Assembly (NCBI GenBank): GCA_963728125.1
Contig: CAVSIZ010000017.1
Coordinates: forward strand, 15,923 to 79,922
Direction of reading: 5' to 3'
Length of the DNA: 64,000 nt
From: an uncultured Actinomycetota bacterium
GTDB lineage: Bacteria; Actinomycetota; Actinomycetes; CAWDCV01
In this document: positions 5,478 through 28,934 of the stretch, one piece after another
Layout of the letters: every line of letters starts with the position of its first letter
Position numbering within the stretch: the stretch's first letter is position 1
Position numbers and translations under genes: made by a program
The notes under the pieces: generated by a model
Seen by the model: only the letters and a program-made list of their open reading frames with translations
Told to the model about the DNA's origin: nothing
The model's database searches: none

Positions 5478-6610
5478 ATGCGCGTCGCCCTCGTCCACAA
5501 CTTTCACACGCGGGGCATCCCGAGCGGTGAGGACGTCGTGGTCCTGGCCGAGGCGGCAGCACTGCAGCGCGCCGGCGTCGACGTTCAGATCGTCGGGACC
5601 AGTAACGATGAGATGGCAAAGCAGCCGGCCGCGCCCCTGCGAGCAGCCTGGGCAGTCACCACCGGGATCGGCGTCTCACCTGAGTCTGACCTGCAGCGCT
5701 TCGACCCGGACGTGGTCCACATTCACGGGACGTTTCCGTACCTCGACCGACGCTGGCTGCGTCGGCTGAACGTGCCCATCGTGGTCACGTCGCACAACTA
5801 CCGGCCGATGTGCGCGAACGGCTACCTGTTCCGCGACGGCCACGTCTGCACGCGCTGCCTTGACGGGCAGCCCTGGTCGGGCGTGCGCTACGGCTGCTAC
5901 CGCGGCTCGCGGGTGGCTTCCGTGCCCCTCGCGGTTGGCTCGATGAGGGGAGCAGCCCGCGATCCGGTTTTGCGTGCCGCCGACCGGGTGCTGGCCCTGT
6001 CCGATCGAGCGAAGTCGGTGCTGGTGCGCGCTGGCGTCCCCGAGAATCGACTCGTGCTCGACCACCACTTCCTGCCCGACGACCTCGACGCGGGCGTCAG
6101 CCCCGCGCGCGATGACTCGTGGATCTTCGTCGGGAGGCTGAGCCCGGAAAAGGGCATCGACCGAGCTCATCGCGCAGTGGCCGGACGACGAGCCGCTCCG
6201 AGTGGTCGGCGACGGCGAACTCCGCGCACAACTCGAGCGGGATGCGGCAGCGAAACCGATCCGGTTCCTGGGAAACTTGCCTCGACACGACGTCATCGAC
6301 GCAGGTAAAGGGGTCGTTCGGGGTGATCTTCCCGAGCCGGTGGTACGAGACGTTCGGCCTCGTCTACATCGAGGGGCTGGCCTGTGGCGTGCCGACGGTC
6401 GCGTTCGACCCCAACGTCGTCGCCGATGCCGTCGCACGTGAGGGAACCGGACAGCTTGCTCACTGGGATGCCGTGGGTGATGCCCTGACAGCTGCTCGCG
6501 GTCGCTTCAATGATCTGCGCGCTCACTGCCGGCGCGTCTTCGAGGAGCGCTACACCGAGAAGGCGTTCGTCGAGCGACGACTCGCCCTGTATGCCGGGCT
6601 GATCGAATGA
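5478..6610 (+). pseudogene. GT4 family glycosyltransferase, interrupted by two frameshifts
   Basis: N-terminal part (MRVALVHNF...HNYRPMCANGY...SWIFVGRLSPEKGID) is in frame 0. The middle part (LIAQWPDDEPLRVVGDGELRAQLE...IRFLGNLPRHDV) is in frame +1 from about 6163. The C-terminal EX7E region (GSFGVIFPSRWYETFGLVYIEGLACGVPTV) is in frame +2 from about 6305. Confidence 0.7.
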
Positions 6611-13677: not shown

Positions 13678-14619
13678 CTATGACATCCCCGCTGACGCTG
13701 ACATCCCCGCTGACGCGTTCAGCCGACTGCTGCCGACAACACTGTCGGTGCGCACGAGGGTATCGAGCCATGACGCCAAGGTGTCCACCGCAAGGCCCTG
13801 CGTCGACACCTCGTGCATTCCACCGAGCCGCGCGTCCACGACGCTTACGGTGAGCAGGTCGCCAGCCGAGTCGGCGATCTTGCCCATCGCACCGGCGCGG
13901 ACGCGCGCGAACTCCGGGTAGAAGTCGTCCGCGCTGCCGTACAGAAAGAGCACCGGGACGCCCCTGCGCAGCGCGGATTGCAGCGCCTCGAGGAACCCCG
14001 GGCTGGCCCCGCCCGGCGACCGCGGCGGACGCGAACCGGTCAGGATGCGGGTCAGCTTGCGCAGCAGGGCCCGGCGCACCTTTCCAGTGGCTTTCCAGGC
14101 GATCGCCACATTCTGCCGGCGCAGCGTTGCCGCCTTCTTGACGTACCACGACAGCGGCCGGCTGAGGATGGCTTCCTGATGGGTCACGTCGCTCACCGGG
14201 GGCGCGATCAGGGCGAGGCCGACGAGCCCATCGACCTGATCCGCAATGGCCATGCCGTTGCGCGCCCCCCAGCACTGGCCGATCATCGCGATCTGGCGAT
14301 GCCCCTGCGACTCCAGCCAGCGGATCGCGCCGAGCGCGTCGTCGGTCCACGGCTTGTCGAACTCGACCTCGCGCATGCTGCCGCTGCTCTCGGCCACGCC
14401 CTGATAGTTGACACGAAGGACCGAGAACCCGCGATCGGCAAGCTCCAGCGCCAACCGCCGGCGCATCTGGTTCTTGCCGAACGTCGGGTCGGTGCCACCG
14501 CCGGCGAGCAGGAGCACGCTCACCCCGTTCGGACGTCCCGACGGCTCGGTGAAGACGCCGAAGAGCTCTTCGGAGCCCGCCGGGAAGAACACCGGGGTGT
14601 TCATCACGGTCCTCCCCAC
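13678..14619 (-). CDS. alpha/beta-hydrolase fold protein with Cys nucleophile (GxCxG), paralog 1
   Basis: Nucleophile elbow MIGQCWGA. Putative acid GSADDF and His GGMHEV. C-terminal SAGMSASAGMS is encoded by an 18-bp tandem duplication. Confidence 0.6.
   Translation of the reverse strand: MGRTVMNTPVFFPAGSEELFGVFTEPSGRPNGVSVLLLAGGGTDPTFGKNQMRRRLALELADRGFSVLRVNYQGVAESSGSMREVEFDKPWTDDALGAIRWLESQGHRQIAMIGQCWGARNGMAIADQVDGLVGLALIAPPVSDVTHQEAILSRPLSWYVKKAATLRRQNVAIAWKATGKVRRALLRKLTRILTGSRPPRSPGGASPGFLEALQSALRRGVPVLFLYGSADDFYPEFARVRAGAMGKIADSAGDLLTVSVVDARLGGMHEVSTQGLAVDTLASWLDTLVRTDSVVGSSRLNASAGMSASAGMS
13681..13716. repeat. perfect 18-bp tandem duplication (TGACATCCCCGCTGACGC x2) at the 3' end of alpha/beta-hydrolase paralog 1
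   Basis: Read directly in the sequence. It encodes the C-terminal SAGMS-A-SAGMS and lies 11 nt upstream of the ACP start. Confidence 0.8.
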
Positions 14620-15521
14620 ATCAGGTGGGCTGTGTCAAGCGAATGTCCGGGACCGTACCCCAGATCTCTGGATACCAAGAAAGCGAAAAGGGCATGTCGC
14701 TCGCCAGCATCCGGGGAAATTCTGCCGAACTCGTGTGCGTCGCGTTCGGCGGATACGGCTGGGATTGTGCCAGCGCACGCTATTGCGCGGGCATACTGAA
14801 CGGCGCCGCTCGTCAACGAGACAGATACGTCGCGGCGGACATTCGGCTCGCAAGCGAATTGTTGGGCGGTCGACGAAATGTTCCGATACGCCACCTCGAC
14901 GCGAAGCCTCCCGCGCTCGACGTTGATGGTGGTGAGCGTGACGTCCCAGGTGCCGTCGTTCTTGATGGGGCGATCGACGACGTAGGTCCCTGGAGCGATG
15001 CGATCAGCCACGGTGCTCGCTGGCGAGGGGCTCGTCAACGACGCGCTGGTGGCTGGGCTGGCAGCTACCGAGGCGTCTCGCTCGGAGTCGTCTTGCGACG
15101 TGACGAGGAAGAACCCCGCGAGCAGGAAGCTCGCCACGACGAGGGCAACGACAAAGACCCGGCGACGCCGATGTTTGCGGCGCTGCGTGTTCCGTTCCGC
15201 TGCCTGCTCGTGCAATGCCTGACGTAGCTTCGCTTCACGTTCACCGGCGAGCCTGAGCTGCGCCTCGCGCGCGCGGGCCTGGTCTTCGCGAGCCTGATCC
15301 GGCTCCTTGGTGAGAACCCGGTAGGCCTCGTTCACCTGACGCAGGTGGCGCTCCGCCTCCTCGATGACCTTGGTGGGGGCGGATTGGTGCCGATCCGGAT
15401 GCAGCAGGTTGGCAAGGACGCGGTAGCGGTCACGGATCTCGGCCTGCGACGCCCCAGGCGCCACCCCGAGCACGGCGTAGGGATCGAAGCGTGGCTGGGG
15501 CATGGTGGGGATGCGTGCCAC
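14604..15521 (-). CDS. J-domain (DnaJ-like) single-pass membrane protein
   Basis: J domain DPYAVLGVAPGASQAEIRDRYRVLANLLHPDRH with an HPD motif. Charged coiled-coil linker. TM helix FVVALVVASFLLAGFFLV. Extracytoplasmic domain of about 160 aa. Confidence 0.65.
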   Translation of the reverse strand: MARIPTMPQPRFDPYAVLGVAPGASQAEIRDRYRVLANLLHPDRHQSAPTKVIEEAERHLRQVNEAYRVLTKEPDQAREDQARAREAQLRLAGEREAKLRQALHEQAAERNTQRRKHRRRRVFVVALVVASFLLAGFFLVTSQDDSERDASVAASPATSASLTSPSPASTVADRIAPGTYVVDRPIKNDGTWDVTLTTINVERGRLRVEVAYRNISSTAQQFACEPNVRRDVSVSLTSGAVQYARAIACAGTIPAVSAERDAHEFGRISPDAGERHALFAFLVSRDLGYGPGHSLDTAHLMWGGP

Positions 15522-15558
15522 TTACGACCGGGAGCTCGTCGGGATCCGGATGCGATCC

Positions 15559-16464
15559 TCAGCCGACTGCTCGCCCTCCCCGGCGGGAATGTCCAACGTG
15601 GCGAATCCACGCCAGCACCGTGCGCAGAAAGGTTTCCTGCACGGCGACCGAGCCGAGCCCGTCGAGGCGACCATCGACGACCTCGACGGCCACCTGCGCG
15701 GACCGCCGATCGATCGCGCGACCGAGCGCATCGTCGCGTGCCCGGTCGAACTGGGACGCGAAGTCGTCATCGAGTCCGTACAGGAACAGCACCGGCGTCC
15801 CCGAGTCGAGGACATGCTCGACCTGCGGGAGGAACCGTCGCGGCGGTGTGCCCGCCCGGCCGCGGCGGCCGAGCAGAACCCGCCGGAGCTTCCCCCTGAG
15901 CACAGCCCGGCGCCGCTTCGCCTTCTCGCCGCGGACGAGGAGCAGCAACGAGCGGGGCGACGTCAGCCGTCGCAAGTACCACGACAGCGGTGAATCGAGG
16001 ACCCCCTCGCGATGCCCTCCGTCGCCCAGCGGGCACGACACCAGGGCCAACCCGGCGAGCGCGCCTACCTGGGGAGCGGCGGCGAGCGCTGCGCGACCGC
16101 CGGCGCACAAGCCGATCACGACGATGCGCTGGAAGCCGCGGGACTCGAGCCAGCGCAGGGCGGCGACGGTGTCGTCGACCCACTCGTTGCCGATATCGGG
16201 GTCGCGGACCAGGCCGCCGCTCTCGCCGACGCCGGTGTAGCTGAAGCGCAGTGCGTGGAAGCCGCGCGCGGCCAGCTCGCGGGACAGCCGTACCCGGGCC
16301 TGGTTCTTCCCGAACGCCGGCACGCCCCCGCCGCCCCACAGGCTCAACACCGCGGCGCCGTTGGCGTTGCCGTTCGGGGCGGTGAGGATGCCGACCAGGT
16401 CCTCGTCAGTCACGTCCGTCGCCGGAATGACGACAGGCGTCTCATTGCTAGACGTGATGGTCAT
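15559..16464 (-). CDS. alpha/beta-hydrolase fold protein, paralog 2 (Cys elbow retained, His not evident)
   Basis: Elbow VIGLCAGG and acid GLDDDF. Clear paralog of 13678-14619. Start ATG at 16462-16464 overlaps the stop of paralog 3 (ATGA). Confidence 0.55.
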   Translation of the reverse strand: MTITSSNETPVVIPATDVTDEDLVGILTAPNGNANGAAVLSLWGGGGVPAFGKNQARVRLSRELAARGFHALRFSYTGVGESGGLVRDPDIGNEWVDDTVAALRWLESRGFQRIVVIGLCAGGRAALAAAPQVGALAGLALVSCPLGDGGHREGVLDSPLSWYLRRLTSPRSLLLLVRGEKAKRRRAVLRGKLRRVLLGRRGRAGTPPRRFLPQVEHVLDSGTPVLFLYGLDDDFASQFDRARDDALGRAIDRRSAQVAVEVVDGRLDGLGSVAVQETFLRTVLAWIRHVGHSRRGGRAVG

Positions 16465-17345
16465 CGACCGGTTCCCGAACCGTTGAGGCGACTCGCCAAC
16501 CACGTCGCTACCTGCTCATTCAACTCCGGATGCAGGACGACCTTCGGTCCGGACCGGAACCACCAGCTCTCCTCGACGTCGACGATGCTGGTGTCGACGG
16601 ACGCACCATTCGCGCGTAGCCGTTCGACGATGGCCCGGTGATCGGGACGGAGCTCACGGCCTTGGAACTGCACGAGCAGGACATCGCCAGAGATGTCATC
16701 GAACTCGGCCAGGGCATCGTGCTCGATCACGCTGTCGTACAGGGAGGCATGGATGACATTGCCGACTACATCAGCCCAGCCCTGAGCAGAGAGCACGTCC
16801 TGCAGCTTCTGTTTCTTGCCGACGGCACTGTCGCTTGCGGTGAGGGCACTCATCGCCCGACTGCGCCATGCCTCGCGAAAGTACCGACGAAAGTCCGTGA
16901 CCGGCTCGACGAGCACCATGGGGGGGCGTTCGTCTGCCCGCGCCCGGGCCGCAGAGGCGGCCGCTAGCGCACCCCAGCGCATGCCGACGAAGCCCATGGG
17001 AACGTCGCCGGCAGAGGCAGCGAGCAGCTGCGTTGCCCACGCGGCGTCGTCCTCGAGGGTCCGCAGGGTCATCTGGCCCGGGTCGCCGTCGCTATCTCCC
17101 ATGCCGGACGGGTGATAGCGCAACGTCATCAGCCCGGCCTCGGAGAGCCGGCGCGCGAGGTAGACCTCGCGTTGATAGTTGGAGACGAAGTCGGCCAGCA
17201 CCGACGAGAAGAGCGCGACGGCGCCCACCGCGGTGCTGCGCGGTTCATGGAGACACGTGAAGAGCGAGACGTCGTCGTCGCGTGCGACGAAGGCAATGCG
17301 TTCGCGCGTGCCAGAGGTGCGATCCGTACGCACACAGTCAGGCAT
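16461..17345 (-). CDS. alpha/beta-hydrolase fold protein, paralog 3 (nucleophile position Cys replaced by Arg)
   Basis: Elbow reads FVGMRWGA instead of GxCxG. Start likely at MPDCVRTD; the ORF could extend to 17417. Confidence 0.5.
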   Translation of the reverse strand: MPDCVRTDRTSGTRERIAFVARDDDVSLFTCLHEPRSTAVGAVALFSSVLADFVSNYQREVYLARRLSEAGLMTLRYHPSGMGDSDGDPGQMTLRTLEDDAAWATQLLAASAGDVPMGFVGMRWGALAAASAARARADERPPMVLVEPVTDFRRYFREAWRSRAMSALTASDSAVGKKQKLQDVLSAQGWADVVGNVIHASLYDSVIEHDALAEFDDISGDVLLVQFQGRELRPDHRAIVERLRANGASVDTSIVDVEESWWFRSGPKVVLHPELNEQVATWLASRLNGSGTGR

Positions 17346-17478: not shown

Positions 17479-18303
17479 TTGGGGAGGGGAAGCCTAGTGA
17501 GCCCGAAATTGATCGAGCACGCTCAGGCACGCGTCGAAGTCGGGGGAATTGCGCTGGGGAGCGCCCACCCGATCCGCGTGATCGCCGGACCGTGCTCCGT
17601 GGAGAGCTTGGAGCAATTCCGCACGACGGCGCAGGCCGTGCACGCGGCCGGCGCTGTACTGCTGCGTGGCGGCGCATTCAAACCGCGAACCTCGCCGTAC
17701 AGCTTTCAGGGGCTCGGCGTCCGCGGCCTGGAGATCATGCGCGAGGTGGCGGACGAGCTCGGGATGGGCGTCGCCACCGAGGCCATGTCGGCGGAGGAGG
17801 TGGTCCTCGTCGCGCGCTACGCCGACATGGTGCAGATCGGCGCGCGAAACATGGACAATCGGCCGCTGCTCGAGGCCGCTGCCGCATCGGGACGACCGAT
17901 CCTGTTGAAGCGAGGAATCACCGCCACCGTCGAGGAAGTCCTCACGGCGGCGGAATACATCGTGGTCCGCGGCAACGACCAGGTAGTGATCTGCGAGCGC
18001 GGCAGTCGGACATTCGAACCGTCCACCAGGAACAGTCTCGACATCGCTGCGGTGTCCGAGCTGAAACTGCGCAGCGACCTGCCGGTCATCGTCGATCCTT
18101 CTCATGGCACCGGTGTTCGCGACCTGGTCGCGCCGGTCGCTCTCGCCGGCATCGCCGCTGGCGCCGACGGCGTGATGGTCGAGGTACATCCGCAGCCCGA
18201 TGCCGCGCTGTCCGATGGCTTCCAGTCCCTCGAGGCGGCCACCTTCCCTGCCTTCATGAGTCGCGTGCGAGCGATGGCGATGGCCATGGGGAGGGCGGTG
18301 TAG
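17479..18303 (+). CDS. 3-deoxy-7-phosphoheptulonate (DAHP) synthase, class I beta (AroG/AroA-type, no chorismate-mutase domain)
   Basis: All catalytic and metal motifs present: [37 protein letters not shown] and MVEVHPQPD. Confidence 0.85.
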
Positions 18304-19941
18304 GTGGCCGCTGCGGCCCCCAACGTGCTGCTGCTCGATCCCGAAGCCACGGAGTCCGAGCTCGCGTCCGTCCTGTCGGCCGCCGGGAGTGCGGTGTCCG
18401 GTCCCCAGGTGACACGTGGGGACGGGTGGGCCGCGATGCCCCTGCTGGGCGACGGAATGCGGTCGGTGGACACCGACCAGTTCGCCGAGCTGCCACCGGT
18501 ACGCCGACTCGTGCAGGTCACGTCGCCGTACCGACTGGCCAGTCGGGAGCTGTTCGACCGCGACGTGGCGGTTCAGGTTCCGCTCCGCGATGACGAGACG
18601 GAATTGTCGGCGGGTCCCGCCTTCGGCGGCCGGTCAGCGCTCGGCATCATCGCGAGCTCCCGCTGGGCGTCGGCGAGCGAGACGCGGCTACAGCATCTCG
18701 CGCCCATGCTGCGTGCGGCCGGCTGCAGCGTCTACCACGCCGGTCGGTTGACGCCCGGGTACGAACGCGCGGGCTCGGGCAGCCTCACCATCGATGCGCT
18801 GCGCCGGCTACGTGAGATCGCCCATGACAGCGACCTGGCGGTCTGCGTCGAGGTGGTGGAGGCGAGCCAGATCGCGTCCGCCGTCGAGCTCGCGGACGTT
18901 TTGCAGGTCGGCAGCGGCAACATGCAGGACTTCAGCCTGCTGCGCGAGATCGGCCGTACGAAGCGGCCAATCATCCTGCGCCGCGGGGTGAGCGCCACGG
19001 TCGAAGAGTTCCTGCTCGCCGCCGAGTACGTCCTCGTGCACGGGAACGGGAAGGTGATCCTCTGCGAGTCGGGGATCCGCACCTTCGCGGCCCTGCAACG
19101 TCCTCGGTTCGAAATCAACGCCATCCCGCTGATCCAGAGCCTGAGCCACCTGCCTCTTATCGCCGACCCGTCGCAGACCGCGCTGCATGCCACCGCAGTC
19201 CCCGCGATGGCGCGCGCCGCGATCGCCGCTGGGGCCGACGGGCTCGTGCTCGAAGTCGGCACGGAGGCGGGGCACGACGCCGAGGGTGCAGCCATCGACC
19301 TGGACAGCATGCGCCGGCTGATGTCGGAGCTTCGACCCATCGCTCGAGCAGTCGGGCGGACCTTCACCGGACGGGGCGTCGATGATTCGTCCCCGCCGTC
19401 CGACGCCATGACCGTCCTGGAACGCACCGACTGCTCCCTGGCCGAGAACATTGAGTCCTACACCGATATGCCCCCACGCCTGGACGTGGTTGGGCAATGG
19501 CGGCTGGTGCCACCCGTACCGTGGTTGAGCCCGCCGCTCGCGCGGGACAGCGAGATCCTCGCGCGCTGCACGAGCTACCTCATGGGGTCGGTGCGGCTGG
19601 CTTGCATGCTGTCGTACGTCGACCTCGGCCGCATCGACTCCACCCTGGCCTCCCTGCTCGAGACCGAGCAGGTGAGTCTCGGCCAGCTGTTCGTGGACCC
19701 GCGGATCGAGCAGCTCGACTACGAGTTCGGGTACAGCGACGCGGAGGGTCCGCTCGACGAGGCCCTGCGGCGGTTCCTGCCCGACGAGCTGCCAATCCTT
19801 TCCCCATATGTATGGCGCAGGTACGAAGCGACCACCCACGGCCAGGTCGCCTTCGTGGTCATCGAGATGCTCCCCATATCGGTGTGGCAGTACCTGCTGA
19901 CCTCGACCCCCGCACCGCCAGTCCGGGAAGGAACAGCCTGA
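18304..19941 (+). CDS. DAHP-synthase-like pseudo-enzyme domain fused to N- and C-terminal domains of unknown function
   Basis: Residues about 100-340 align with the upstream DAHPS (KRPIILRRGVSATVEEFLLAAEYVLVHGNGKVILCESGIRTF versus [42 protein letters not shown]). Catalytic motifs are replaced: GPCS to ASSR, KPRTS to GRLTP, IGARN to VGSGN, DPSH to DPSQ, and EVH to EVG. A C-terminal extension of about 200 aa follows. Start immediately follows the upstream stop. Confidence 0.6.
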   Translation: MAAAAPNVLLLDPEATESELASVLSAAGSAVSGPQVTRGDGWAAMPLLGDGMRSVDTDQFAELPPVRRLVQVTSPYRLASRELFDRDVAVQVPLRDDETELSAGPAFGGRSALGIIASSRWASASETRLQHLAPMLRAAGCSVYHAGRLTPGYERAGSGSLTIDALRRLREIAHDSDLAVCVEVVEASQIASAVELADVLQVGSGNMQDFSLLREIGRTKRPIILRRGVSATVEEFLLAAEYVLVHGNGKVILCESGIRTFAALQRPRFEINAIPLIQSLSHLPLIADPSQTALHATAVPAMARAAIAAGADGLVLEVGTEAGHDAEGAAIDLDSMRRLMSELRPIARAVGRTFTGRGVDDSSPPSDAMTVLERTDCSLAENIESYTDMPPRLDVVGQWRLVPPVPWLSPPLARDSEILARCTSYLMGSVRLACMLSYVDLGRIDSTLASLLETEQVSLGQLFVDPRIEQLDYEFGYSDAEGPLDEALRRFLPDELPILSPYVWRRYEATTHGQVAFVVIEMLPISVWQYLLTSTPAPPVREGTA

Positions 19942-21501
19942 TGACCGACATGCCTCCCGCGTCGGAGAACGGCTCCCGCCTTTACAACGCCGCCGTCGAT
20001 CTGCTCGGACGCAACGCCACCGTGGACCGCCCGTACCTGCTGGCGTCGCAGCGGACATGGAGCTATCCCGAGGTGATTGCGGCCGCCGATGCTGCCGGTG
20101 CGGGTCTGCTCGACCTCGGGCTGGAACCCGGTGACCGGGTCATCCTCACGACGCGGGACCGGCCGGAGTTCGTCATCTCGTTCTGGGGCGCCATCAAGGC
20201 AGGGCTCGTGCCGGTGCCGGTCGCGCCGATGCTGACGGCGGCCGACCTGCACTTCATCCTCACCGACAGCGAGGCTCGGGCGCTGGTCTGCGACGGCTCG
20301 TCGTGTCGCTGCCGCCCAGGTCGCCGCGGACGGCACGGCGGCGACCTGCCTCATGGCCGGCGACGACCCGCCGGCGGGAGTCCGCTCCTGGTCCGACGTG
20401 TGCGCCAAACCGGCGTCGCTCGACGTGGCCCCAACGACTGGCGACGACATCGTGCTGTGGCTGTACACGTCCGGGACGACCGGGTTGCCCAAGGCCACGA
20501 TGCACCGGCATCGCAGCATGCAGGCGGTCAGCGATGGCATGCCGCATCAGATCCTGAAGATGAACGAGGACGATGTCGTGCTGTCGGTGTCGCGGATGTT
20601 CTTCGCGTACGGCCTCGGCAACTCGGTGTACGTGCCGGCCATCTTCGGGTCGTCGGTCATCGTGCGGGAGAACCCCGGCGTACCGGCGATGGTGCAGAAC
20701 CTGTTGAAGAAGACTGAGCCGACGCTGCTGTTCGGCGTGCCGGCGTTCTACCGCGGGTTTGTCGGCCTCGCGAATCCGCAGTTGCCGGCGTCGGTGCGCG
20801 CTGCGGTCAGCGCCGGCGAGGCGCTCGACGTCGAGCTGTTCGAGCGCTTCCGCGCGGCGTTCGGCATTCCTCTGATCGATGCCCTCGGTTCGACCGAGGC
20901 GCTGCACTTCGTCACCTCGAACCGGCCGGACGACGTGGTCCCGGGCAGCGCTGGGCGACCGATGGACGGCTTCCGCATCGAGGCGCGTGATCGCGACGGC
21001 AGGTCCCTGCCCGAAGGCGAGAGCGGCGAGCTGTGGATCAACGGCCCGACGACGTTCGCGGGATACTGGCGTCGCCCAGAGCTCACCGAGCGCGCGTACG
21101 AGGGCTCGTGGATGCGTACCGGCGACCGGGTACGGATCGTCGACGGCCGGCTGTACCACGAGGGTCGCCTCGACGACATGGTCAAGCTCGGCGGGATCTG
21201 GGTCGCCCCGGCCGAGATCGAGGACGTACTGCGCAGCCATGCCGACGTCAGCGACGCGGCCGTCGTGGCGATCGACGACGGGTCGGGCGTGCCCGTGCTC
21301 AAGGCGTACGTGGTGTCGGAGCAGGGTGGTCCCGAGCTGGCGCAGGTGCTGCTGCGCCTGTGCCGCAGCCGGCTCGCCGGGTTCAAGGTGCCGCAGTCGT
21401 ACGACTTCCTCGACGAGTTGCCGCGAACGCCCTCCGGCAAGGTCCGGCGCTTCCTGCTGCGCGACCAGGCCACCGCATCCGCAGGAGCCGCGCGCACCTA
21501 G
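19941..21501 (+). CDS. aryl-CoA ligase (benzoate / 4-hydroxybenzoate-CoA ligase family, AMP-binding), apparent frameshift near 20296
   Basis: N-terminal MTDMPPASENGSRLYNAAVDLLGRN...RDRPEFVISFWGAIKAGLVPVPV in one frame. The remainder (AMP-binding motif LYTSGTTGLPKATMHRH, hinge DDMVKLGGIWVAPAEIE, and C-terminal PRTPSGKVRRFLLRDQ) is in the +1 frame. ATGA overlap with the upstream gene. Confidence 0.7.
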
Positions 21502-22316
21502 TCGCCGGCGCGGGCGCCCTGGGCGGCCGACGCCCGGACGGGCTGGGCCTGACTGGCGAGCCAGGCGCGCCACGACGAGCTGTCGATGTCCGGGCCGACC
21601 GCTACGTGAGCGCCGACCCAGGCACTCACGTAGCGAATGCCGTGCAGCGCGTTCACGATCCACACGGTCCGGCCCGCGAACTCGTCCAGCCGGCAGCAGA
21701 CCTCGCGTACCTCGATCCCACACTCGCGCGCGTGCTGCTGGAGCAGCCGCGTAGTGACGCCCGACAGCGTCGGCAGCGACGACGACGGCAGGCACAACGC
21801 GCCATCCGCCCACCACAGCAGGTTGGACGTCGCCGTCTCCACTACGTGACCAGACGTGCTCCGCAACAGGACATCATCGGCGCCCGCTGCGGCAGCCGCC
21901 TGCCGCCAGTCAGCGAGCACGCCGAGATCGGGACCCTTCCGCCGGGGGACGCGGCGCGGATCCACCGAGTCCGAGACCCGCACGCGGGCCTGCTGGAAGC
22001 GCGGTGGCGCCGACCGCAGGCGCAGCGCCAGCCGACCGCGCGGACGGCTCGCGAGCTCTACCCGCGGGAACCACGTTCCCGTGGACGGCAGCTGGTCGAC
22101 GGCGGCCGCCCAGAACGCCGCCACCGTGGCAGCCGACACGCCGCCGACCTCGGCACATGCCGTGGCAAAGCGCGCTGCATGCAGGTCGAGTCCGCGCACC
22201 GCCCCGTCGTGGAGCAACCACGAGTCAGCAGCGAGCAGCGGCGCATGCGCCGATTCCTGCTCAGGGGCGCTCATGAGGCCAGCAGCCTCGGACCACACGA
22301 GCAGCGAATCAGCCAA
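21498..22316 (-). CDS. class IV aminotransferase-fold protein, aminodeoxychorismate lyase (PabC)-like
   Basis: 272 aa, matching the length of fold-type IV PLP enzymes. ETATSNLL motif. Start overlaps the end of the PabAB gene. Confidence 0.6.
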   Translation of the reverse strand: MADSLLVWSEAAGLMSAPEQESAHAPLLAADSWLLHDGAVRGLDLHAARFATACAEVGGVSAATVAAFWAAAVDQLPSTGTWFPRVELASRPRGRLALRLRSAPPRFQQARVRVSDSVDPRRVPRRKGPDLGVLADWRQAAAAAGADDVLLRSTSGHVVETATSNLLWWADGALCLPSSSLPTLSGVTTRLLQQHARECGIEVREVCCRLDEFAGRTVWIVNALHGIRYVSAWVGAHVAVGPDIDSSSWRAWLASQAQPVRASAAQGARAGD

Positions 22317-24399
22317 GACGCGAAGCCTGCTGTTCGCGTCCGGGGAATGTCGCGCCGAGCAGGCGCAGCAACGGCGCGGCCTTGACCGCGGTCTCCTCGA
22401 ACTCTTCGGCCGGATCGGATAGGGCGACGATCGCGCCGCCGACGCCGTACGTCACCCGCTCCGGCTCGACCACGGTCGTCCTGATCACGATGCTCAGGTC
22501 AGCGGCACCGGACAGCGAGAAGTACCCGATGGCACCGGAGTAGACCCCGCGCGGCCCCGCCTCGAGCGAGTCGATGATCTTCATGGTGCGGATCTTCGGC
22601 GCTCCGGTCATCGAGCCGCCGGGGAACGCCGCGCGCACGCACGCCACCGCCGACGTGTCAGAGCGCAGCGTCGACTGAACGGTGCTCACCAGCTGGTGAA
22701 CGGTCGCGTACGTCTCTACATCGAACAGCTTCGGCACCCGCACCGTGCCGATCTCGGCCGTACGTCCGAGGTCGTTGCGCACCAGGTCGACGATCATCAG
22801 ATTTTCTGAGCGATCCTTTTCGCTCGCGACCAGGTCGTGCCGGAGCAGCTCGTCGGCTTGCGTGGTCTTCCCCCGCGGCCGAGTGCCCTTGATCGGTTTG
22901 GACTCCACCACGGCATCCCTGCCGACGCGCAGGAAGCGCTCGGGCGACGTACTGAGTACCGAGAACCAGCCGCAGCGCAGCAGCGCGCCGAACGGTGTCG
23001 GGTTGACCGCTCGCAGCGCCCGGTAGCTCCGCCACGGGTCGACGGTGCCGCGGGCCTCGATCATGTTGGTGAGGCAGACCTCGTAGGTCTCCCCCGCGAC
23101 GATGGCCTCGTTGCAAGCATCGATCAGCTTCAGGTACTGCTCGCGGTCATGTCGGATGTGGACGTCGGGAAGCGCGGGCAAGTCTTCGGCCGGCGCGGGC
23201 AGCTGACCGACGAGAGAGGTCAGCACCTCCGCCGTGTCGCGCAGCCAGGAACGGGCGGCTTCGTCGTCATCGCCTGAGAGGGCCAGCAGGTACGTCGTCC
23301 ACGACCCGTGATCGAACACGACGGCGCGGTCCGCGAACAGCATCATCGCGTCAGGCTGAGGGGACGTGTGGACGCGATCGCCGCCGCACTCGGACTTGAG
23401 CTCGTAGCCGAGATAGCCCACCCAGCCAAGAGCGAAGTCGAAGGGAAGGCTTGGTACGTCCACATCCAAGCCGCGCAGGTCACGGTCGAGCCAGTCGAGG
23501 AACTCGCTCTGGATGACGTCACCTCCATCCGAGCCCTGCACCGTGACTATGCCCCGCTGGGTGTCAGCGACCACCGTCCGTGCCAGCGGCCCGTCGGCGC
23601 AGCCCATCACCGAATAGCGACCGATGCCGTGGTCCTGCCGACTGCTGTCCAACCAGAACGAAACGTCGCGGTCGCCGAACAGCCTCGCGAAGACGACCTC
23701 GTCGTCCCAGCGCGTCTGCAGCGTCTCGACGTGCACCCGCAGCCGGGTCCGCGACTCCTGCTTCTCCACCCGTGCTGGCGAGGTCGCGGGCTCGGTCCGG
23801 GCGGTCGCCCGCGTCCGGCCCTGATGGCTCCTTGTGAGGTCAGCGAAGTTCGCGAGCAGCCGATGTCCATGCTCGGTGCTGATCGATTCGGGATGGAATT
23901 GCACGCCCCACAGCGGCCGCTGCCGATGCCGCAGCCCCATCAGCACGCCGTCCGGGGTCCAGGCGATGGGTTCGAGATCGTCAGGGAGGTCGGTAGCTGC
24001 TAGCGAGTGATAGCGCACCGCTTCGAATGGCGAGGGCAACCCGGCGAACACGTCGACCTGCTTGTGCAGGACCGGAGATACGCGGCCGTGCCGCGGCTCG
24101 GGGGCCCGACCCACGACACCGCCGAGCAGGTGGGCGATGGCCTGGTGACCGAGGCAGACACCAAGCACCGGCAGGTCGCCCTGCTCGATGATCTCCCGGC
24201 ATAGCCCGATGTCACTGGCGCGCGCTGGCGTTCCCGGGCCGGGCGAGATCACCACGTTGTCGAAGCTGTCGAGCCAGTCGAGTCGCCACGCCGGATCGTC
24301 GTTGCTGATGACCTCCGGCGGGGTCTCGTTCACCTCAGCCAAGTAGTGGAACAGGTTGTACGTGAACGAGTCGTAGTTGTCGACGAGAAGCGTGCGCAT
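22309..24399 (-). CDS. pabAB: aminodeoxychorismate synthase, fused glutamine amidotransferase (PabA) and component I (PabB)
   Basis: N-terminal GATase (MRTLLVDNYDSFTYNLFHYL, GVCLGHQAI with catalytic Cys). C-terminal chorismate-binding domain (KPIKGTRPRGKT, AAFPGGSMTGAPKIRTMKIID, GVYSGAIGYF). Start overlaps the stop of the upstream phosphotransferase (TGATG). Confidence 0.85.
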   Translation of the reverse strand: MRTLLVDNYDSFTYNLFHYLAEVNETPPEVISNDDPAWRLDWLDSFDNVVISPGPGTPARASDIGLCREIIEQGDLPVLGVCLGHQAIAHLLGGVVGRAPEPRHGRVSPVLHKQVDVFAGLPSPFEAVRYHSLAATDLPDDLEPIAWTPDGVLMGLRHRQRPLWGVQFHPESISTEHGHRLLANFADLTRSHQGRTRATARTEPATSPARVEKQESRTRLRVHVETLQTRWDDEVVFARLFGDRDVSFWLDSSRQDHGIGRYSVMGCADGPLARTVVADTQRGIVTVQGSDGGDVIQSEFLDWLDRDLRGLDVDVPSLPFDFALGWVGYLGYELKSECGGDRVHTSPQPDAMMLFADRAVVFDHGSWTTYLLALSGDDDEAARSWLRDTAEVLTSLVGQLPAPAEDLPALPDVHIRHDREQYLKLIDACNEAIVAGETYEVCLTNMIEARGTVDPWRSYRALRAVNPTPFGALLRCGWFSVLSTSPERFLRVGRDAVVESKPIKGTRPRGKTTQADELLRHDLVASEKDRSENLMIVDLVRNDLGRTAEIGTVRVPKLFDVETYATVHQLVSTVQSTLRSDTSAVACVRAAFPGGSMTGAPKIRTMKIIDSLEAGPRGVYSGAIGYFSLSGAADLSIVIRTTVVEPERVTYGVGGAIVALSDPAEEFEETAVKAAPLLRLLGATFPGREQQASRLG

Positions 24400-25853
24400 C
24401 AGTGCGCCCCGACGCCGCGGATGACGGCGCGCCCGGTCTTCCACAAGATGTGCAGGTCGAGCGGCAGCGACCAGTTCTCGACGTACCGCAGGTCGATGAG
24501 CACCGAGTCCTCCCACGACAGGCTGGCCCGGCCACTCACCTGCCACAGACCCGTGAGCCCCGGCTTCACCAGCAACCGCCGTCGTACGTCGTCGCCGTAC
24601 TGCGCGACCTCGCAGGGCAGCGGCGGGCGCGGGCCCACGAGCGACATCTGGCCCAGCAACACGTTGACCAGCTGCGGCAGCTCATCCAGTGACCAGCGGC
24701 GCAGGAACCGCCCAACCGGCGTGATGCGCGGATCGTGGCGCATCTTGAAGAGCACGCCGTCGTGATCGTTGCGATCGAGGAGGTAGTCCCGCTGGCGCTC
24801 CGCACCGACGACCATCGTGCGGAACTTGTAGATGGTGAACGTTCGGGAGTTGATGCCGACCCGGGTCTGCCGGAACAGCGGTGGGCCGCCGTCGGCCAGC
24901 CAGATCCAGCACCCGATCGCCACCATCACCGGGGCCAGCAGGACAAGCCCCACGGCCGCAACCGACCGGTCGTAGACGGCCTTGGTGACCTTGCCCGCTC
25001 CGGACAGCCGCGGGCGCTCGACGTGCAGGAGCGGGAGTCCAGCGACCGGTCGAACCGTGATGCGCGGTCCCGCGACCTCGATCAGTCCCGATCCGACGAC
25101 CAGGTCTGTCTCGGATGTCTCGAGCGACCAGGCGAGACGGCGCAGTGCAGCGCCGGACAGTTCCGCGTTGGACAGCACCGCGACCGTATCCGCGTGGACG
25201 TCGCGCACGGCTTGGGCAACCGTGCTGAAGGTCCCGACGACCGGAACGCTGGGATCGAGATCGGTGGGCCGCTCGGCGTTCTCCGGCAGACACACGCCGG
25301 CGACAGACAAGCCGTGCGCCTTCTCCCGGCGCAGCTGCCGAACGCAGTCGGACACCGCCCACGGCGCGCCCACCACGATGGTGCGATGCACGCACTGCCC
25401 GGCTCGGCGTTGCCGCCGCAGCCGGATTCGTAGTGCCCAGCGAGCAAGCAGGTCGAGAACGATGACGAGTGGGATCGCGACCAGGACGTAGCCACGCGCG
25501 ATCTCGGCGTCGGTCGCGTACGAGACGAACGCCACCACGGCCATGAGCGCCACGCCGGCGTGGAGCACGCGACGCAACTCCTCGGTGCCGACGCCCATGT
25601 ATCGCCGCTCGTACGCCCGATTCGCGGCGACGATGGCCACCCACACCAGGGGAAAGAGCGCCGATCCGATGAGGTACGCCGGCTGCAGCGGGGCATCGCC
25701 GGATCTCGATGACAGCGCGACGATCGCGGCAATGCCCGCAACGACCGCATCAGCCGCGACCGCGTTCGCGATGTAGGAGACCTGCCAGTCGCGGGTGTCG
25801 GCATCGGCAGGGGACGTGGCCACGCTCGAGTCAGGCAGGCCGAGGATCGACAT
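24399..25853 (-). CDS. polyprenyl-phosphate sugar phosphotransferase (WbaP/CpsE-like initiating glycosylphosphotransferase), copy 1
   Basis: Five N-terminal TM helices. C-terminal catalytic domain RTFTIYKFRTM...HDPRITPVGRFLRRWSLDELPQL...GQMSLVGPRP...KPGLTGLWQV. Confidence 0.85.
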   Translation of the reverse strand: MSILGLPDSSVATSPADADTRDWQVSYIANAVAADAVVAGIAAIVALSSRSGDAPLQPAYLIGSALFPLVWVAIVAANRAYERRYMGVGTEELRRVLHAGVALMAVVAFVSYATDAEIARGYVLVAIPLVIVLDLLARWALRIRLRRQRRAGQCVHRTIVVGAPWAVSDCVRQLRREKAHGLSVAGVCLPENAERPTDLDPSVPVVGTFSTVAQAVRDVHADTVAVLSNAELSGAALRRLAWSLETSETDLVVGSGLIEVAGPRITVRPVAGLPLLHVERPRLSGAGKVTKAVYDRSVAAVGLVLLAPVMVAIGCWIWLADGGPPLFRQTRVGINSRTFTIYKFRTMVVGAERQRDYLLDRNDHDGVLFKMRHDPRITPVGRFLRRWSLDELPQLVNVLLGQMSLVGPRPPLPCEVAQYGDDVRRRLLVKPGLTGLWQVSGRASLSWEDSVLIDLRYVENWSLPLDLHILWKTGRAVIRGVGAH

Positions 25854-25987: not shown

Positions 25988-27259
25988 CTAGCCCGAGCCG
26001 AGGCTGCTGTCCCCGTCGACGATCATGCCGGCGCCGACGGTGACGTTCGTTGCCTCGTCGATGACGATGAATCCGCCGGTGGTGCGGCTGCGGACGTACG
26101 GGTCGGCGAACAGCGGTGCCTGGGTGCGCAGTCGCACCCGACCGACCTCGTTGAGGTGGAGTCCGGTGGCGTCGGACTGGCGGTGCAACGTGTTGACGTC
26201 GAGCCGGTACTGCAGCTCCTTGACGATGGCCTTCACCGAGCGGGTGGTGTGCTTGATCGTGTACTTCTTGCCCGGGATCAGCGCCGCGCGATCGTCCATC
26301 CAGCACAGCATCGCGTCGATGTCCTGGTTCATCGCTGGCCGGTTGTGCGGGCGGCAGATCATGTCACCCCGCGAGACGTCGATCTCGTCCTCGAGGCGCA
26401 GCGTCACCGACATCGTGGGGAACGCCTCCTCCAGCGGACCGTCGAGACCGTCGATGGCGGCGATGCGGCTGGTGAAGCCGCTCGGCAAGACGACGACCTC
26501 ATCGCCCACTCGCAGCACCCCGCCGGCGACCATGCCGGCATAGCCGCGGTAGTCCTGACCGCGACTCGACATCGGACGCAGCACGTACTGCACCGGGAAG
26601 CGCACATCGACGAGGTTGCGGTCGCTGGCGACGTGCACGTTCTCCAGGTGATGCAGCAGCGTCGGTCCCTCGTACCACGGAGATCGCGTCGAACGCTGCA
26701 CGACGTTGTCGCCGTGCAGCGCCGAAATGGGGATGAACGACAGGTCCGGAGCGCTGAGCTTCGTTGAGAACGCGCTGAACTCCGACCGGATCGACTCGAA
26801 GACGTCCTCGGACCAGTCGACGAGGTCCATCTTGTTGACGACGAGCAGCAGGTGCGGCACCCGCAGCAGGGACACGAGGAACGCGTGCCGGCGACTCTGC
26901 TCGACGATGCCCTTGCGGGCGTCGATGAGGACGAGCGCGAGGTCCGCGGTGGACGCGCCAGTCACCATGTTGCGCGTGTACTGGATGTGCCCCGGCGTAT
27001 CAGCAATGACGAACTTGCGTCGCGGCGTCGCGAAGTAGCGGTACGCCACATCGATCGTGATGCCCTGCTCGCGTTCGGCGCGCAGCCCATCCGTGAGCAG
27101 CGCCAGGTTGGTGTACTCGTCGCCGCGGTCGCGACTGGTGCGTTCGACGCTCTCCAGCTGATCCTCGAAGATCGCCTTGCTGTCGTAGAGCAACCGACCG
27201 ATCAGCGTGCTCTTGCCGTCGTCGACGGAGCCCGCGGTCGCCAGGCGCAGGATGTCCAC
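25988..27259 (-). CDS. cysN: sulfate adenylyltransferase subunit 1 (GTPase), no fused APS-kinase domain
   Basis: GTP-binding motifs GSVDDGKSTL, DTPGH and NKMD. 423 aa, so no CysC domain is fused. Confidence 0.9.
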   Translation of the reverse strand: MDILRLATAGSVDDGKSTLIGRLLYDSKAIFEDQLESVERTSRDRGDEYTNLALLTDGLRAEREQGITIDVAYRYFATPRRKFVIADTPGHIQYTRNMVTGASTADLALVLIDARKGIVEQSRRHAFLVSLLRVPHLLLVVNKMDLVDWSEDVFESIRSEFSAFSTKLSAPDLSFIPISALHGDNVVQRSTRSPWYEGPTLLHHLENVHVASDRNLVDVRFPVQYVLRPMSSRGQDYRGYAGMVAGGVLRVGDEVVVLPSGFTSRIAAIDGLDGPLEEAFPTMSVTLRLEDEIDVSRGDMICRPHNRPAMNQDIDAMLCWMDDRAALIPGKKYTIKHTTRSVKAIVKELQYRLDVNTLHRQSDATGLHLNEVGRVRLRTQAPLFADPYVRSRTTGGFIVIDEATNVTVGAGMIVDGDSSLGSG

Positions 27260-28167
27260 TAGAAATAGCCCTCTCGCTTACGGTCCTCCATCGCGGCCTC
27301 GCTGAACTTGTCGTCCCCGCGAGTCGCGCCGCGCTCGGTGACACGCGTGGCTGCGACCTCGGCAATCACCTTCTCGACCGTGTCGGCGTCCGACTGCACG
27401 GCGGCGGTCAACGTAGCGTCGCCCACGGTCCGGTAGCGCACTCGCGCCGTGAACACCGGCTCGTCGGCCCGTGGCTGGCAGAACTCGTTCGCGGCGAACA
27501 GCATCCCTTGCCGCAGGAACACGTCGCGGTCGTGCGCGTAGTAGATGTTCGGCAGCGCGAGCCGTTCCTGCGCGATGTACGACCACACGTCGAGCTCGGT
27601 CCAGTTCGACAGCGGGAACACGCGCAGGCTCTCGCCGAGATGAATGCGCCCGTTGTAGAGGCTCCACAGCTCGGGACGCTGATTCTTCGGATCCCACTGA
27701 CCGAACTCGTCCCGGAAGGAGAAGATGCGCTCCTTCGCGCGCGCCTTTTCCTCGTCTCGCCGCGCGCCGCCGAAGAGTGCGGTGAAGCGATGCTTCTCCA
27801 CGGCTTCGAGCAGCACCGGCGTCTGAATGCGGTTACGCGAACCGTTTGGCTCCGGCGTGACCAGACCGCGCTCGATCGCATCCTCGACCGAGGCGACGAG
27901 GAGCTGAACGCCGAGCTCGGTTACCCGCCGATCGCGGAACTCGAGCACCTCGGGGAAGTTGTGCCCGGTGTCGACGTGCATCACCGGGAACGGGATCGGT
28001 GCGGGTCGGAACGCCTTCTCCGCCAACCGCAGCATGACGATGGAATCCTTGCCACCGGAGAACAGGAGTACCGGTCGCTCGAGCTCCGCGGCCACCTCGC
28101 GGATGATGTAGGTCGCCTCCGACTCGAGGACCGCGAGCTGATCCAGGCGGTAATCAGGTGGGCTCAT
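27259..28167 (-). CDS. cysD: sulfate adenylyltransferase subunit 2
   Basis: PAPS-reductase-like fold LLFSGGKDSIVMLRLA, plus HVDTGHNFPE. Its stop overlaps the start of cysN. Confidence 0.9.
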   Translation of the reverse strand: MSPPDYRLDQLAVLESEATYIIREVAAELERPVLLFSGGKDSIVMLRLAEKAFRPAPIPFPVMHVDTGHNFPEVLEFRDRRVTELGVQLLVASVEDAIERGLVTPEPNGSRNRIQTPVLLEAVEKHRFTALFGGARRDEEKARAKERIFSFRDEFGQWDPKNQRPELWSLYNGRIHLGESLRVFPLSNWTELDVWSYIAQERLALPNIYYAHDRDVFLRQGMLFAANEFCQPRADEPVFTARVRYRTVGDATLTAAVQSDADTVEKVIAEVAATRVTERGATRGDDKFSEAAMEDRKREGYF

Positions 28168-28934
28168 CGGAGGGCCTCGATCGAGGTGGCGGAGTCGAGT
28201 GCCACGAGGAGCTCGACGGCGAGCTCGGGTCGACAGACGACGAGGTCGGGCAGGTACGGATTCGCCGCATTGTAGGTAAGCGGGGAGCCGTCGAGGCGAC
28301 TGCAGTACAACCCGGCAGCGCGCGCCACCGCTACCGGCGCGGCGGAATCCCACTCATATTGACCGCCGGCGTGAACATAAGCGTCCATTTCGCCGAGCAG
28401 CACCGTCGCCACCTTGAAGCCCGCCGATCCCCACGGCACCACATCGGCGGACAGGTCGGCCAACGCGGCGAGGACACCGGCATCTGCGCGAGATCGGCTC
28501 ACCGTCGCCCGCCAGGGACCGGCGTTGCGTGGTGGTACGGCCGGCGGTGAATCTGTAGCCAGCGTCATCGATCGGCCCGGTAGCGCAACCGCGCCGGCAA
28601 CGAGTTCACCACGTTCCCACAGCGCGACGTGCACGCCCCAGTCCTGCCGGCCCTCGGCGTACTCGCGGGTGCCGTCGAGCGGATCGACGATCCAGACCCG
28701 ATCGGCGTGCAGTCGAGCTGCGTCGTCGGCTGCCTCCTCGCTCAGCACGGCGTCGTCGGGACGCAGCCGGTGCAGCTCGTCGGCCAGGAACGCCTGCGCA
28801 GCGCTGTCGCCAGCTGCGCGCAGGTCCTCGCCAGCGGTCAAATCGCGACGCAGCCGCAGCAGCAGGTCGCCGGTCTGCTCCGCAAGACGGCGCGCCAGTG
28901 CCGCGTCGACACCAGCGGATCGGGACGCAGCCAT
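28164..28934 (-). CDS. cysQ: 3'(2'),5'-bisphosphate nucleotidase (PAP phosphatase), inositol-monophosphatase family
   Basis: Motifs WIVDPLDGTREY and WDSAAPVAVARAAG. Its stop overlaps the start of cysD. Confidence 0.8.
   Translation of the reverse strand: MAASRSAGVDAALARRLAEQTGDLLLRLRRDLTAGEDLRAAGDSAAQAFLADELHRLRPDDAVLSEEAADDAARLHADRVWIVDPLDGTREYAEGRQDWGVHVALWERGELVAGAVALPGRSMTLATDSPPAVPPRNAGPWRATVSRSRADAGVLAALADLSADVVPWGSAGFKVATVLLGEMDAYVHAGGQYEWDSAAPVAVARAAGLYCSRLDGSPLTYNAANPYLPDLVVCRPELAVELLVALDSATSIEALR

Follow-up and report, generated by a model that had tools for sequence, protein, structure and literature searches.

We analyzed a 64,000-nt stretch of contig CAVSIZ010000017.1 from an uncultured Actinomycetota bacterium (the window, with positions counted from its first letter). 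Database cluster members that carry an NCBI annotation put the organism among uncultured Acidothermales/Actinomycetes. An earlier note had proposed a dedicated p-aminobenzoate (PABA) module here, made up of an aryl-acid ligase, a PabC-like lyase, a fused PabAB and a private 3-deoxy-D-arabino-heptulosonate-7-phosphate synthase (DAHPS), with an acyl carrier protein (ACP) and Cys-type α/β hydrolases to activate and transfer the acid. All of these genes are present where the note had put them (Table 1). The G+C content of the window is 64–71%, and analysis of third-codon-position G+C (GC3) by frame, which separated real genes from many spurious open reading frames, backs the coding status of the ligase, PabC-like, PabAB, DAHPS, ACP, and hydrolase genes. 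Two further features went unmentioned in that note, a gene for a 545-aa protein and a frameshift in the ligase gene. With slightly more confidence than doubt, we read the locus as two neighbors lying back to back: a conserved cassette for aryl decoration of the hydroxybenzoate type, and a PABA pair that probably serves folate synthesis.

A conserved aryl-acid cassette

Three plus-strand genes, those of DAHPS, the 545-aa protein and the ligase, are translationally coupled; in this trio DAHPS sits two genes upstream of the ligase, and stop and start codons abut or overlap (the ligase start overlaps the stop of the 545-aa gene as TGATG). This order is kept in 6/6 other contigs (L088, L089, L090, L172, L173, and L174), again with abutting or overlapping stop and start codons and in a glycan-locus setting throughout. 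The six contigs are independent, come from uncultured Actinomycetota and encode 545-aa proteins 36–63% identical to the window copy. Between the window and L088–L090, identity is 68–83% for DAHPS, 37–63% for the 545-aa protein, and 59–69% for the ligase.

In four of the six loci a pair of α/β-hydrolase genes (hyd2–hyd1) directly precedes the trio; a fifth (L090) has the pair ∼5 kb downstream, and homologues of the carrier protein adjoin the cassette in three (L089, L090, and L174). Three loci also encode a CmlS-like flavin halogenase or monooxygenase (L089 7840–9138, L173 7821–9137, and L090 16998–18302) that scores 170–185 bits on the CmlS model, far under its cutoff; all adjoin hyd2–hyd1, and two of the three lie between this pair and DAHPS. 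Their presence suggests a halogenated or hydroxylated aryl group in those three loci. The window contains no halogenase gene.

Neither Chorismate_bind, nor a PabA-type GATase, nor Aminotran_4 was found within 10 kb of the trio in any of the six loci, which leaves PabAB and the PabC-like enzyme outside the conserved unit of DAHPS and ligase. The single PABA module that the earlier note had drawn around all four genes is not supported, the trio having, in addition, a lyase-fold domain of its own.

Table 1. Features of the cassette, the PABA pair and the adjoining operon (window coordinates)
Feature	Coordinates	Strand	Domains, models and remarks
Small carrier protein (ACP/aryl carrier), 101 aa	13364..13669	−	NCBIfam ACP models; GVIDSLGMHQL motif (DSL)
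hyd1a, α/β hydrolase	13678..14604	−	Cys nucleophile elbow GQCWGAR; TIGR03100 hydr1_PEP, 50 bits (cutoff 168)
J-domain membrane protein	14621..15503	−	Pfam DnaJ; extra base at 14770 relative to L004 and L005 disturbs frame
hyd1b, second Cys-type α/β hydrolase	15522..16464	−	GLCAGGR; 50 bits on TIGR03100 (cutoff 168); extra base at 15603 in window
hyd2, partner α/β-hydrolase-fold protein	16461..17345	−	Arg at nucleophile position (GMRWG); TIGR03101 hydr2_PEP, 76 bits (cutoff 203)
Catalytic type Iβ DAHPS	17497..18303	+	TIGR01361, NF006421; barrel only, no regulatory domain
545-aa fusion protein	18304..19941	+	Ferredoxin-like N-domain, dead DAHPS barrel, C-terminal chorismate-lyase-fold domain (about 19354–19938)
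Benzoate-CoA-ligase-family aryl-acid adenylating enzyme	19941..21501	+	AMP-binding, AMP-binding_C
PabC-like fold-type-IV pyridoxal-phosphate enzyme (probable aminodeoxychorismate lyase)	21498..22316	−	Aminotran_4
Fused PabA-PabB aminodeoxychorismate synthase, 696 aa	22309..24399	−	GATase, Anth_synt_I_N, Chorismate_bind
Polyprenyl glycosylphosphotransferase (exopolysaccharide priming enzyme)	24399..25853	−	TIGR03025, 401 bits; same operon as pabAB
cysN, cysD, cysQ-like (sulfate activation and 3′-phosphoadenosine 5′-phosphate phosphatase)	25988..28934	−	Upstream in pabAB operon
Second polyprenyl glycosylphosphotransferase	28939..30354	−	TIGR03025, 391 bits

A dead DAHPS paralogue with a lyase-fold domain

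The first gene of the trio encodes a DAHPS that passes TIGR01361 (346 bits, cutoff 268) and NF006421 (375 bits, cutoff 335) and keeps all catalytic residues (the metal-binding Cys, His, Glu, and Asp, KPRTS, and GARN). Its neighbor, the 545-aa protein, stays under threshold at 223 bits (DAHPS cutoff 335), although its first 350 residues, the ferredoxin-like regulatory domain at the N terminus included, can be aligned with the DAHPS of Thermotoga maritima over its whole length. Of 32 family members, none keeps the metal-binding Cys or the Arg of KPRTS; the Lys of KPRTS and the Asp are kept in one each, and the His in six. By these residues the barrel is a catalytically dead DAHPS paralogue, and this subunit probably regulates its catalytic partner. 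A role of the 3-deoxy-D-manno-octulosonate-8-phosphate synthase (KDO8P) or NeuB type was rejected for both DAHPS-family genes, since both genes score far lower on models of those two families than on DAHPS models.

The family of the 545-aa protein has ∼100 full-length members, all from Actinomycetota metagenomes or metagenome-assembled genomes (MAGs). They carry the public names “N-acetylneuraminate synthase family protein” (NCBI HEY9351548.1, HET9900156.1, and HJY26043.1) and “3-deoxy-7-phosphoheptulonate synthase” (JGI), both of which mislead, as a dead barrel fused to a lyase-fold domain fits neither. A metagenome scan with the family alignment used barrel patterns and matched almost only ordinary DAHP synthases. 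To our knowledge, no heteromeric DAHPS with a pseudo-enzyme subunit has been described, and literature searches for such a subunit or for a DAHPS–chorismate-lyase fusion returned nothing relevant.

The last ∼190 residues of the 545-aa protein (the C-domain) are strongly conserved in the family. Their profile matches PDB 2NWI (AF1396, DUF98) at E 2e-4, and an AlphaFold model of the domain (pLDDT 85, pTM 0.80) has the same entry as its best Foldseek match (E 1e-7, TM 0.75), with Escherichia coli UbiC (1FW9, 1G81, and 1G1B) at TM 0.55–0.63. When the profile was run against 1.8 billion representative proteins, 68 clusters were recovered, about half of them stand-alone proteins of 170–195 aa; the distant matches P0297, P0298, P0301, and P0303 pass the gathering score of PF01947 (“Chorismate pyruvate-lyase Rv2949c-like”). 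Residues R421, L459–G460, and E521 are invariant in the family. From profile bridging and the predicted fold, we place the C-domain in the chorismate pyruvate-lyase superfamily (Rv2949c/UbiC type), as a divergent member.

Two database proteins join these parts differently. In P0250 (709 aa), a relative of the C-domain is fused directly to a ligase orthologue (60% identical), and P0191 (890 aa) combines the ferredoxin-like domain, the dead DAHPS barrel and a ligase without a lyase domain. Both could be genuine fusions or read-through products of indels at overlapping stop and start codons.

The ligase, carrier protein and α/β hydrolases

We compared the window with two sister contigs, L004 and L005, which are near-identical metagenome assemblies of the same species. 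The intact 519-aa ligase of L004 scores 412 bits on TIGR02262 benz_CoA_lig (cutoff 375), and the C-terminal 382 aa of the window ligase score 330 bits on the same model. Its closest matches among solved structures are benzoate-CoA ligases (2V7B and 4EAT) and an anthranilate-CoA ligase (4WV3), and FadD22, a 4-hydroxybenzoate-AMP ligase, is among the higher-scoring NCBIfam models. By these matches the ligase is of aryl type, as the earlier note had held; a fatty-acyl identity was rejected on the NCBIfam models and the solved structural relatives. Because the 545-aa protein carries a chorismate pyruvate-lyase-fold domain, the cognate substrate of the ligase is most likely 4-hydroxybenzoate, as with mycobacterial Rv2949c and FadD22, and the C-domain most probably supplies it.

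The genes hyd2, hyd1b, the J-domain gene, hyd1a, and the carrier-protein gene diverge from DAHPS. The carrier protein is 100% identical to L004:5869–6174 and matches the OlsHI ACP, AmcB, and DltC models of NCBIfam, all under cutoff. Its DSL motif bears out the ACP of the earlier note, and two of the three hydrolases have the expected Cys in a G-x-C-x-G elbow; the third has Arg in that place. The hydrolases thus fall into two conserved types that occur in adjacent pairs, hyd1 with Cys and hyd2 with Arg, and hyd2 and hyd1b are joined in the window by an ATGA overlap. The G-x-C-x-G-x-R elbow is kept in all hyd1 homologues, including 19/19 database matches of hyd1a, whose homologue search returned just these 19 metagenomic proteins, and the G-x-R-W/F-G motif of hyd2 is conserved in L089, L090, L173, and L174. 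A Cys nucleophile in hyd1 would fit thioester-mediated acyl transfer from the carrier protein. Literature searches for the combination of hydrolases, ACP and ligase in exopolysaccharide (EPS) loci yielded nothing relevant and no report of function.

The J-domain protein, which has a predicted membrane segment and a C-terminal domain, is encoded between the two hyd1 genes and was not seen in the other cassette loci.

The PABA pair

The fused PabAB contains GATase (175 bits) and Chorismate_bind (290 bits) domains, scores 382 bits on TIGR00553 pabB (cutoff 328), and shows the motifs SKPIKGTRPRG, GVCLGHQ, and FHPES in its translation. The lysine of PIKGT (K274 of E. coli PabB) is Ala in anthranilate synthases and marks aminodeoxychorismate (ADC) synthases; it is present here, as is the Cys-His-Glu triad of the class-I glutamine amidotransferase domain. 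The PabC-like enzyme scores 102 bits on PF01063 (Aminotran_4, cutoff 28.5), and its best PDB matches are the ADC lyases 26TB and 3LUL. It fails all curated ADC-lyase models (44–68 bits against cutoffs of 177–273): the best of them gives 44 against 273, and the best model overall, PRK09266 “hypothetical protein”, 68 against 202. The PabAB-adjacent homologues of Brevibacterium and Streptomyces netropsis likewise miss the curated thresholds.

Homologues of the PabC-like enzyme (38–48% identity) lie next to or near a fused PabAB in 12 other actinomycete loci. K127 of its KGPD motif is invariant in 12/12 of these PabAB-linked homologues, and a downstream Glu is mostly conserved; the match of K127 to K140 of the E. 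coli enzyme was made by eye only, the PDB alignments spanning just residues 138–235. Because PabAB passes the ADC synthase model with the PIKGT lysine, and the PabC-like subfamily is PabAB-linked with an invariant KGPD lysine, PABA is the expected product. The two enzymes very probably make it, in agreement with the earlier note.

Outside its own species, PabAB is 62–68% identical to hundreds of actinomycete copies, and 61–65% identical to Streptomyces copies in a core context of PucR regulator, methyltransferase, PabAB, and transaldolase. A neighbor-joining tree (without support values) places it in a star-like clade of these core-context copies and a few cluster-borne ones, outside two clearly dedicated clades whose members are consistently linked to ligase and PabC-like genes or to ACP, ligase, and DAHPS. 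Such a phylogeny had been proposed as a check in the earlier note; it leans toward the folate type but is not decisive. Because PabAB groups with the Streptomyces core-genome copies, we take a folate role as the leading reading: the pair is most likely the PABA source of the organism’s folate pathway, co-transcribed with the EPS/cysDN operon, and the PABA genes themselves are probably ordinary. In Brevibacterium (L020), the order pheS, pheT, a short-chain dehydrogenase gene, PabAB, and PabC-like provides a housekeeping-looking setting for the same gene pair. PABA may also have a dual role in this lineage, serving both folate and the glycan cluster.

The alternative in which PabAB and the PabC-like enzyme feed the glycan cluster, the ligase activating PABA for the ACP and a Cys-hydrolase transferring it, with DAHPS supplying the PABA branch, is in our judgment unlikely. 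Tight linkage speaks for it, the ends of pabAB and the EPS transferase, of pabC-like and pabAB, and of the ligase and pabC-like genes all overlapping, and so do the nearest cultured homologues of PabAB (65–67%) and PabC-like (48%), which lie in clusters with AMP-ligases, AurF, and DAHPS. The ligase is, moreover, aryl-type, with an anthranilate-CoA ligase among its top structural relatives, and the two hyd1 paralogues of the window could serve two aryl acids. However, the cassette was found six times without PabAB or PabC and brings its own lyase-type domain, to which the ligase is fused in P0250, and PabAB lies outside the clearly dedicated clades. In addition, the cassette ligases are 59–69% identical to that of the window, compared with 37–41% for the PabAB-adjacent ligases of Streptomyces clusters.

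Several loci recovered in these comparisons are of interest in themselves. The core context (GAF/PucR regulator, PrmA-like methyltransferase, and PabAB) appears around position 10001 in L008, L009, L015, L027, and L064 (all Streptomyces) and in L091 (a 3.5-Mb MAG), with a transaldolase downstream in L008 and L091, the loci whose downstream gene was annotated; this context is a useful marker for housekeeping pabAB in Streptomyces-like genomes. Locus L007 (S. netropsis CP147867.1, 4236411–4258528) encodes AurF, ketosynthases, ACP, a phosphopantetheinyl transferase, an AMP-ligase, PabAB, PabC-like, MaoC, and a class II DAHPS; AurF requires PABA, and the cluster looks like a polyketide pathway primed with PABA or p-nitrobenzoate. 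In L028 and L035 (MAGs of uncultured Actinomycetes and Thermoleophilaceae), a type Iβ DAHPS (53% identical) is grouped with ACP, an AMP-ligase, PabAB, and a second AMP-ligase, an arrangement that could represent a genuinely dedicated PABA module, separate from the window's cassette.

Flanking genes and sequence quality

To the left of the cassette lies a polysaccharide and sulfation cluster with two sulfotransferases, an epimerase, glycosyltransferases, an ABC exporter, and a Wzz/tyrosine-kinase protein. On the other side, a minus-strand run comprises a priming transferase, cysQ-like, cysD, cysN, a second priming transferase, pabAB, and pabC-like, and its junctions overlap or nearly abut, except for a 134-nt gap after cysN. 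Within it, the ATG of pabAB and the stop of the sugar transferase gene upstream share 1 nt, and the TTG start of pabC-like overlaps the pabAB stop by 8 nt. The PABA genes are thus embedded in a glycan cluster, as the earlier note had described, with pabAB coupled to the EPS/sulfate-activation operon. That note had also remarked that pabB does not sit beside metS here, and the conserved block to the right of the cassette (30.7–52.6 kb; pmt-rsmI-metS-tatD-rpfB-ksgA-ispE...glmU-prsA-rplY-pth-ppc) indeed contains metS without an adjoining pabB.

Two Sulfotransfer_3 genes (3527–5463), together with cysD, cysN, and the cysQ-like gene, point to a sulfated polymer. No adenosine-5′-phosphosulfate kinase gene was found in the window; one adjoins the cassette in L172. 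A GT4/GT1-type glycosyltransferase gene (5476–6610) is apparently split across two reading frames. The sole Rfam match in the window is a tRNA gene just upstream of glmU (38517–38589, minus strand), the scan returning no folate or other riboswitch, and promoter and terminator scans of the window were uninformative.

Scattered 1-nt indels inside genes differ between the near-identical assemblies of this species. In the window they fall at 14770, 15603, and 20304 (the J-domain gene, hyd1b, and the ligase, respectively), all inside conserved genes, and in L004 one at the equivalent of window position 24214 breaks PabAB. Their look suggests long-read assembly noise, which the Flye-style contig names fit. 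The assemblies also differ between the convergent ligase and pabC-like ends, where L004 and L005 have an additional 60 nt that contain a perfect 19-nt inverted repeat (around L004 14010–14085). The window (21504–21524) lacks this insert, through which the PabC-like tail in L004 and L005 differs and is 20 aa longer (292 vs 272 aa).

Proposed function and alternatives

In the back-to-back reading, DAHPS would raise flux into the shikimate pathway under the probable control of its dead partner subunit, and the lyase-type C-domain would turn chorismate into 4-hydroxybenzoate or a close analogue. The ligase would adenylate this aryl acid and load it onto the carrier protein, or possibly onto CoA. 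A Cys-hydrolase would then accept the aryl group as a thioester and pass it to a sugar polymer made by the surrounding EPS and sulfation genes. By the literature searches above, such an aryl-decoration cassette is apparently undescribed.

A number of observations weigh against this reading. The cassette contexts sampled are six only, none above 63% identity in the 545-aa protein. The two nearest tree neighbors of PabAB (L006 and L007) lie in biosynthetic clusters, one of them with AurF, a ligase, PabC-like, and DAHPS; there is also translational coupling between the EPS priming transferase and pabAB, and the PABA pair runs toward the cassette, their stop codons overlapping. Benzoate-CoA-ligase-family enzymes often take several para-substituted benzoates, and PABA could for that reason be a co-substrate of the ligase. 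For the C-domain itself, the window sequence has no Pfam match even at E 10, and an hhalign comparison with an approximate UbiC sequence was not significant; the pairing of R421, L459–G460, and E521 with R76, L114, and E155 of UbiC comes from manual reading rather than a computed superposition. Its fold is, furthermore, common to the UTRA ligand-binding domains of GntR/HutC regulators, so that a purely sensory role is possible. Finally, the ligase frame of the window is broken by one extra T at 20304.

The sensory role can be extended to an explanation in which the C-domain is a UTRA-like ligand sensor, the 545-aa protein a regulatory pseudo-subunit of DAHPS, and the aryl acid comes from elsewhere (PABA here, other sources in other lineages). 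Many of the Foldseek matches are indeed UTRA effector-binding domains, the 545-aa protein keeps a ferredoxin-like regulatory domain along with its dead barrel, and the C-domain lacks a direct Pfam match to a lyase family. We nevertheless regard this explanation as quite improbable: the best match in both sequence and structure is the DUF98/Rv2949c lyase family rather than UTRA, stand-alone versions of 170–195 aa and a direct ligase fusion exist, the residues manually aligned to the product-binding Arg and Glu of UbiC are invariant, and the other cassettes encode no alternative source of an aryl acid within 10 kb.

The broken ligase frame admits a further explanation, that the frameshift is real and the cassette is decaying in this strain, which would abolish activation of the aryl acid and leave the PABA and EPS genes as the only functional ones. 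The extra T is common to the window and L005 and lies outside any homopolymer. However, the ligase frame is intact in L004, GC3 is high in both halves of the gene, and the window and L004 have their own indels elsewhere. Because each near-identical assembly has its own scattered 1-nt indels inside genes, the frameshift is probably an assembly error, and we give decay very little credence.

A more elaborate picture would combine both units. In it, a sulfated surface polysaccharide of this Acidothermales-like lineage carries 4-hydroxybenzoyl groups derived from the lyase domain and p-aminobenzoyl groups from recruited pabAB and pabC-like genes. Both acids would be loaded on the dedicated carrier and transferred by new heteromeric Cys/Arg α/β-hydrolase acyltransferases, the hyd1 paralogues perhaps serving one acid each, with flux set by DAHPS and its dead-paralogue–lyase regulatory subunit. 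We put this forward as a speculative and rather unlikely extension.

If the cassette functions as proposed, hydroxybenzoate-type groups, in some lineages halogenated, are added to the surface glycans of uncultured soil Actinomycetota by a carrier-protein route akin in logic to mycobacterial phenolic glycolipid synthesis but with different transfer enzymes. It would also offer a first concrete substrate hypothesis for the combination of paired hydrolase 1/hydrolase 2, ACP, and ligase, whose closest curated relatives, the exosortase-associated EPS families, are labeled “hypoth_equivalog” in NCBIfam. A pseudo-enzyme subunit would likewise join the known modes of DAHP synthase regulation.

Comparison with known systems

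Dedicated PABA supply is known from candicidin/FR-008 (pabAB-pabC), from pathways of the aureothin AurG/AurF/AurE type, and from chloramphenicol. The window resembles such modules, of which the S. netropsis locus L007 is an example, in that a PabC-like gene (48% identical in L007) follows and overlaps a fused PabAB, with an aryl ligase and a pathway DAHPS nearby. It differs in that its DAHPS and ligase are members of a cassette found elsewhere without PabAB; L007, by contrast, has a class II DAHPS and a ligase of just ∼28% identity, together with AurF and polyketide genes. Housekeeping pabAB-pabC (Brevibacterium L020 and the Streptomyces core pabAB) shares the domain architecture of the window genes at 52–65% identity, and in L020 a member of the same PabC-like subfamily lies immediately downstream of PabAB, there near pheST. 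Unlike these, the window pair lies within an EPS/sulfate-activation operon, with which it is translationally coupled.

In exosortase-A (PEP-CTERM) EPS loci, an ACP occurs alongside hydrolase 1 (TIGR03100), hydrolase 2 (TIGR03101), and an acyl-CoA ligase (TIGR03098). The first two models are the best NCBIfam matches of the three window hydrolases, at scores well under their cutoffs (50, 50, and 76 bits against 168 and 203), and the arrangement is similar as well: neighboring hydrolases of two different types accompany an AMP-ligase and an ACP, and the EPS locus around them has a tyrosine kinase and a priming transferase. The window ligase, on the other hand, is of the benzoate-CoA type (189 bits on TIGR03098, cutoff 592), and the host belongs to the actinobacteria. 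Annotation of the window genes brought up no exosortase, although no search was aimed at exosortase or PEP-CTERM.

D-alanylation of teichoic acids by the Dlt system (DltA and DltC) is comparable in that a stand-alone adenylating enzyme and a small dedicated carrier decorate a surface polymer, and the ACP of the window weakly matches the DltC model. The acyl group of the cassette would instead be an aryl acid rather than D-alanine, and transfer would fall to α/β hydrolases rather than to an MBOAT protein and DltD.

Among regulated type Iβ DAHP synthases, the T. maritima enzyme shares the N-terminal ferredoxin-like domain of the 545-aa protein. The chorismate-mutase-fused enzymes of Bacillus/Listeria and Porphyromonas resemble it in carrying an extra domain predicted to bind chorismate. 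Unlike all of these, the barrel of the 545-aa protein lacks catalytic residues, its extra domain has a lyase rather than a mutase fold, and the catalytic barrel of the cassette is encoded by a separate, translationally coupled gene.

The mycobacterial p-hydroxybenzoate branch pairs the chorismate pyruvate-lyase Rv2949c with FadD22, a 4-hydroxybenzoate-AMP ligase and carrier, and feeds phenolic glycolipids and p-hydroxybenzoic acid derivative (p-HBAD) glycoconjugates. The cassette likewise sets a predicted member of the Rv2949c-like family (PF01947, through profile bridging and fold) beside an aryl-acid adenylating enzyme with a carrier, in an actinobacterial locus for envelope glycoconjugates. 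Unlike Rv2949c, the C-domain of the window is itself under the Pfam threshold. Its fusion partner is a dead DAHPS paralogue, a private DAHPS accompanies it, and the carrier is a separate 101-aa protein. In place of a Pks15/1-type polyketide synthase, the cassette has paired Cys/Arg α/β hydrolases.

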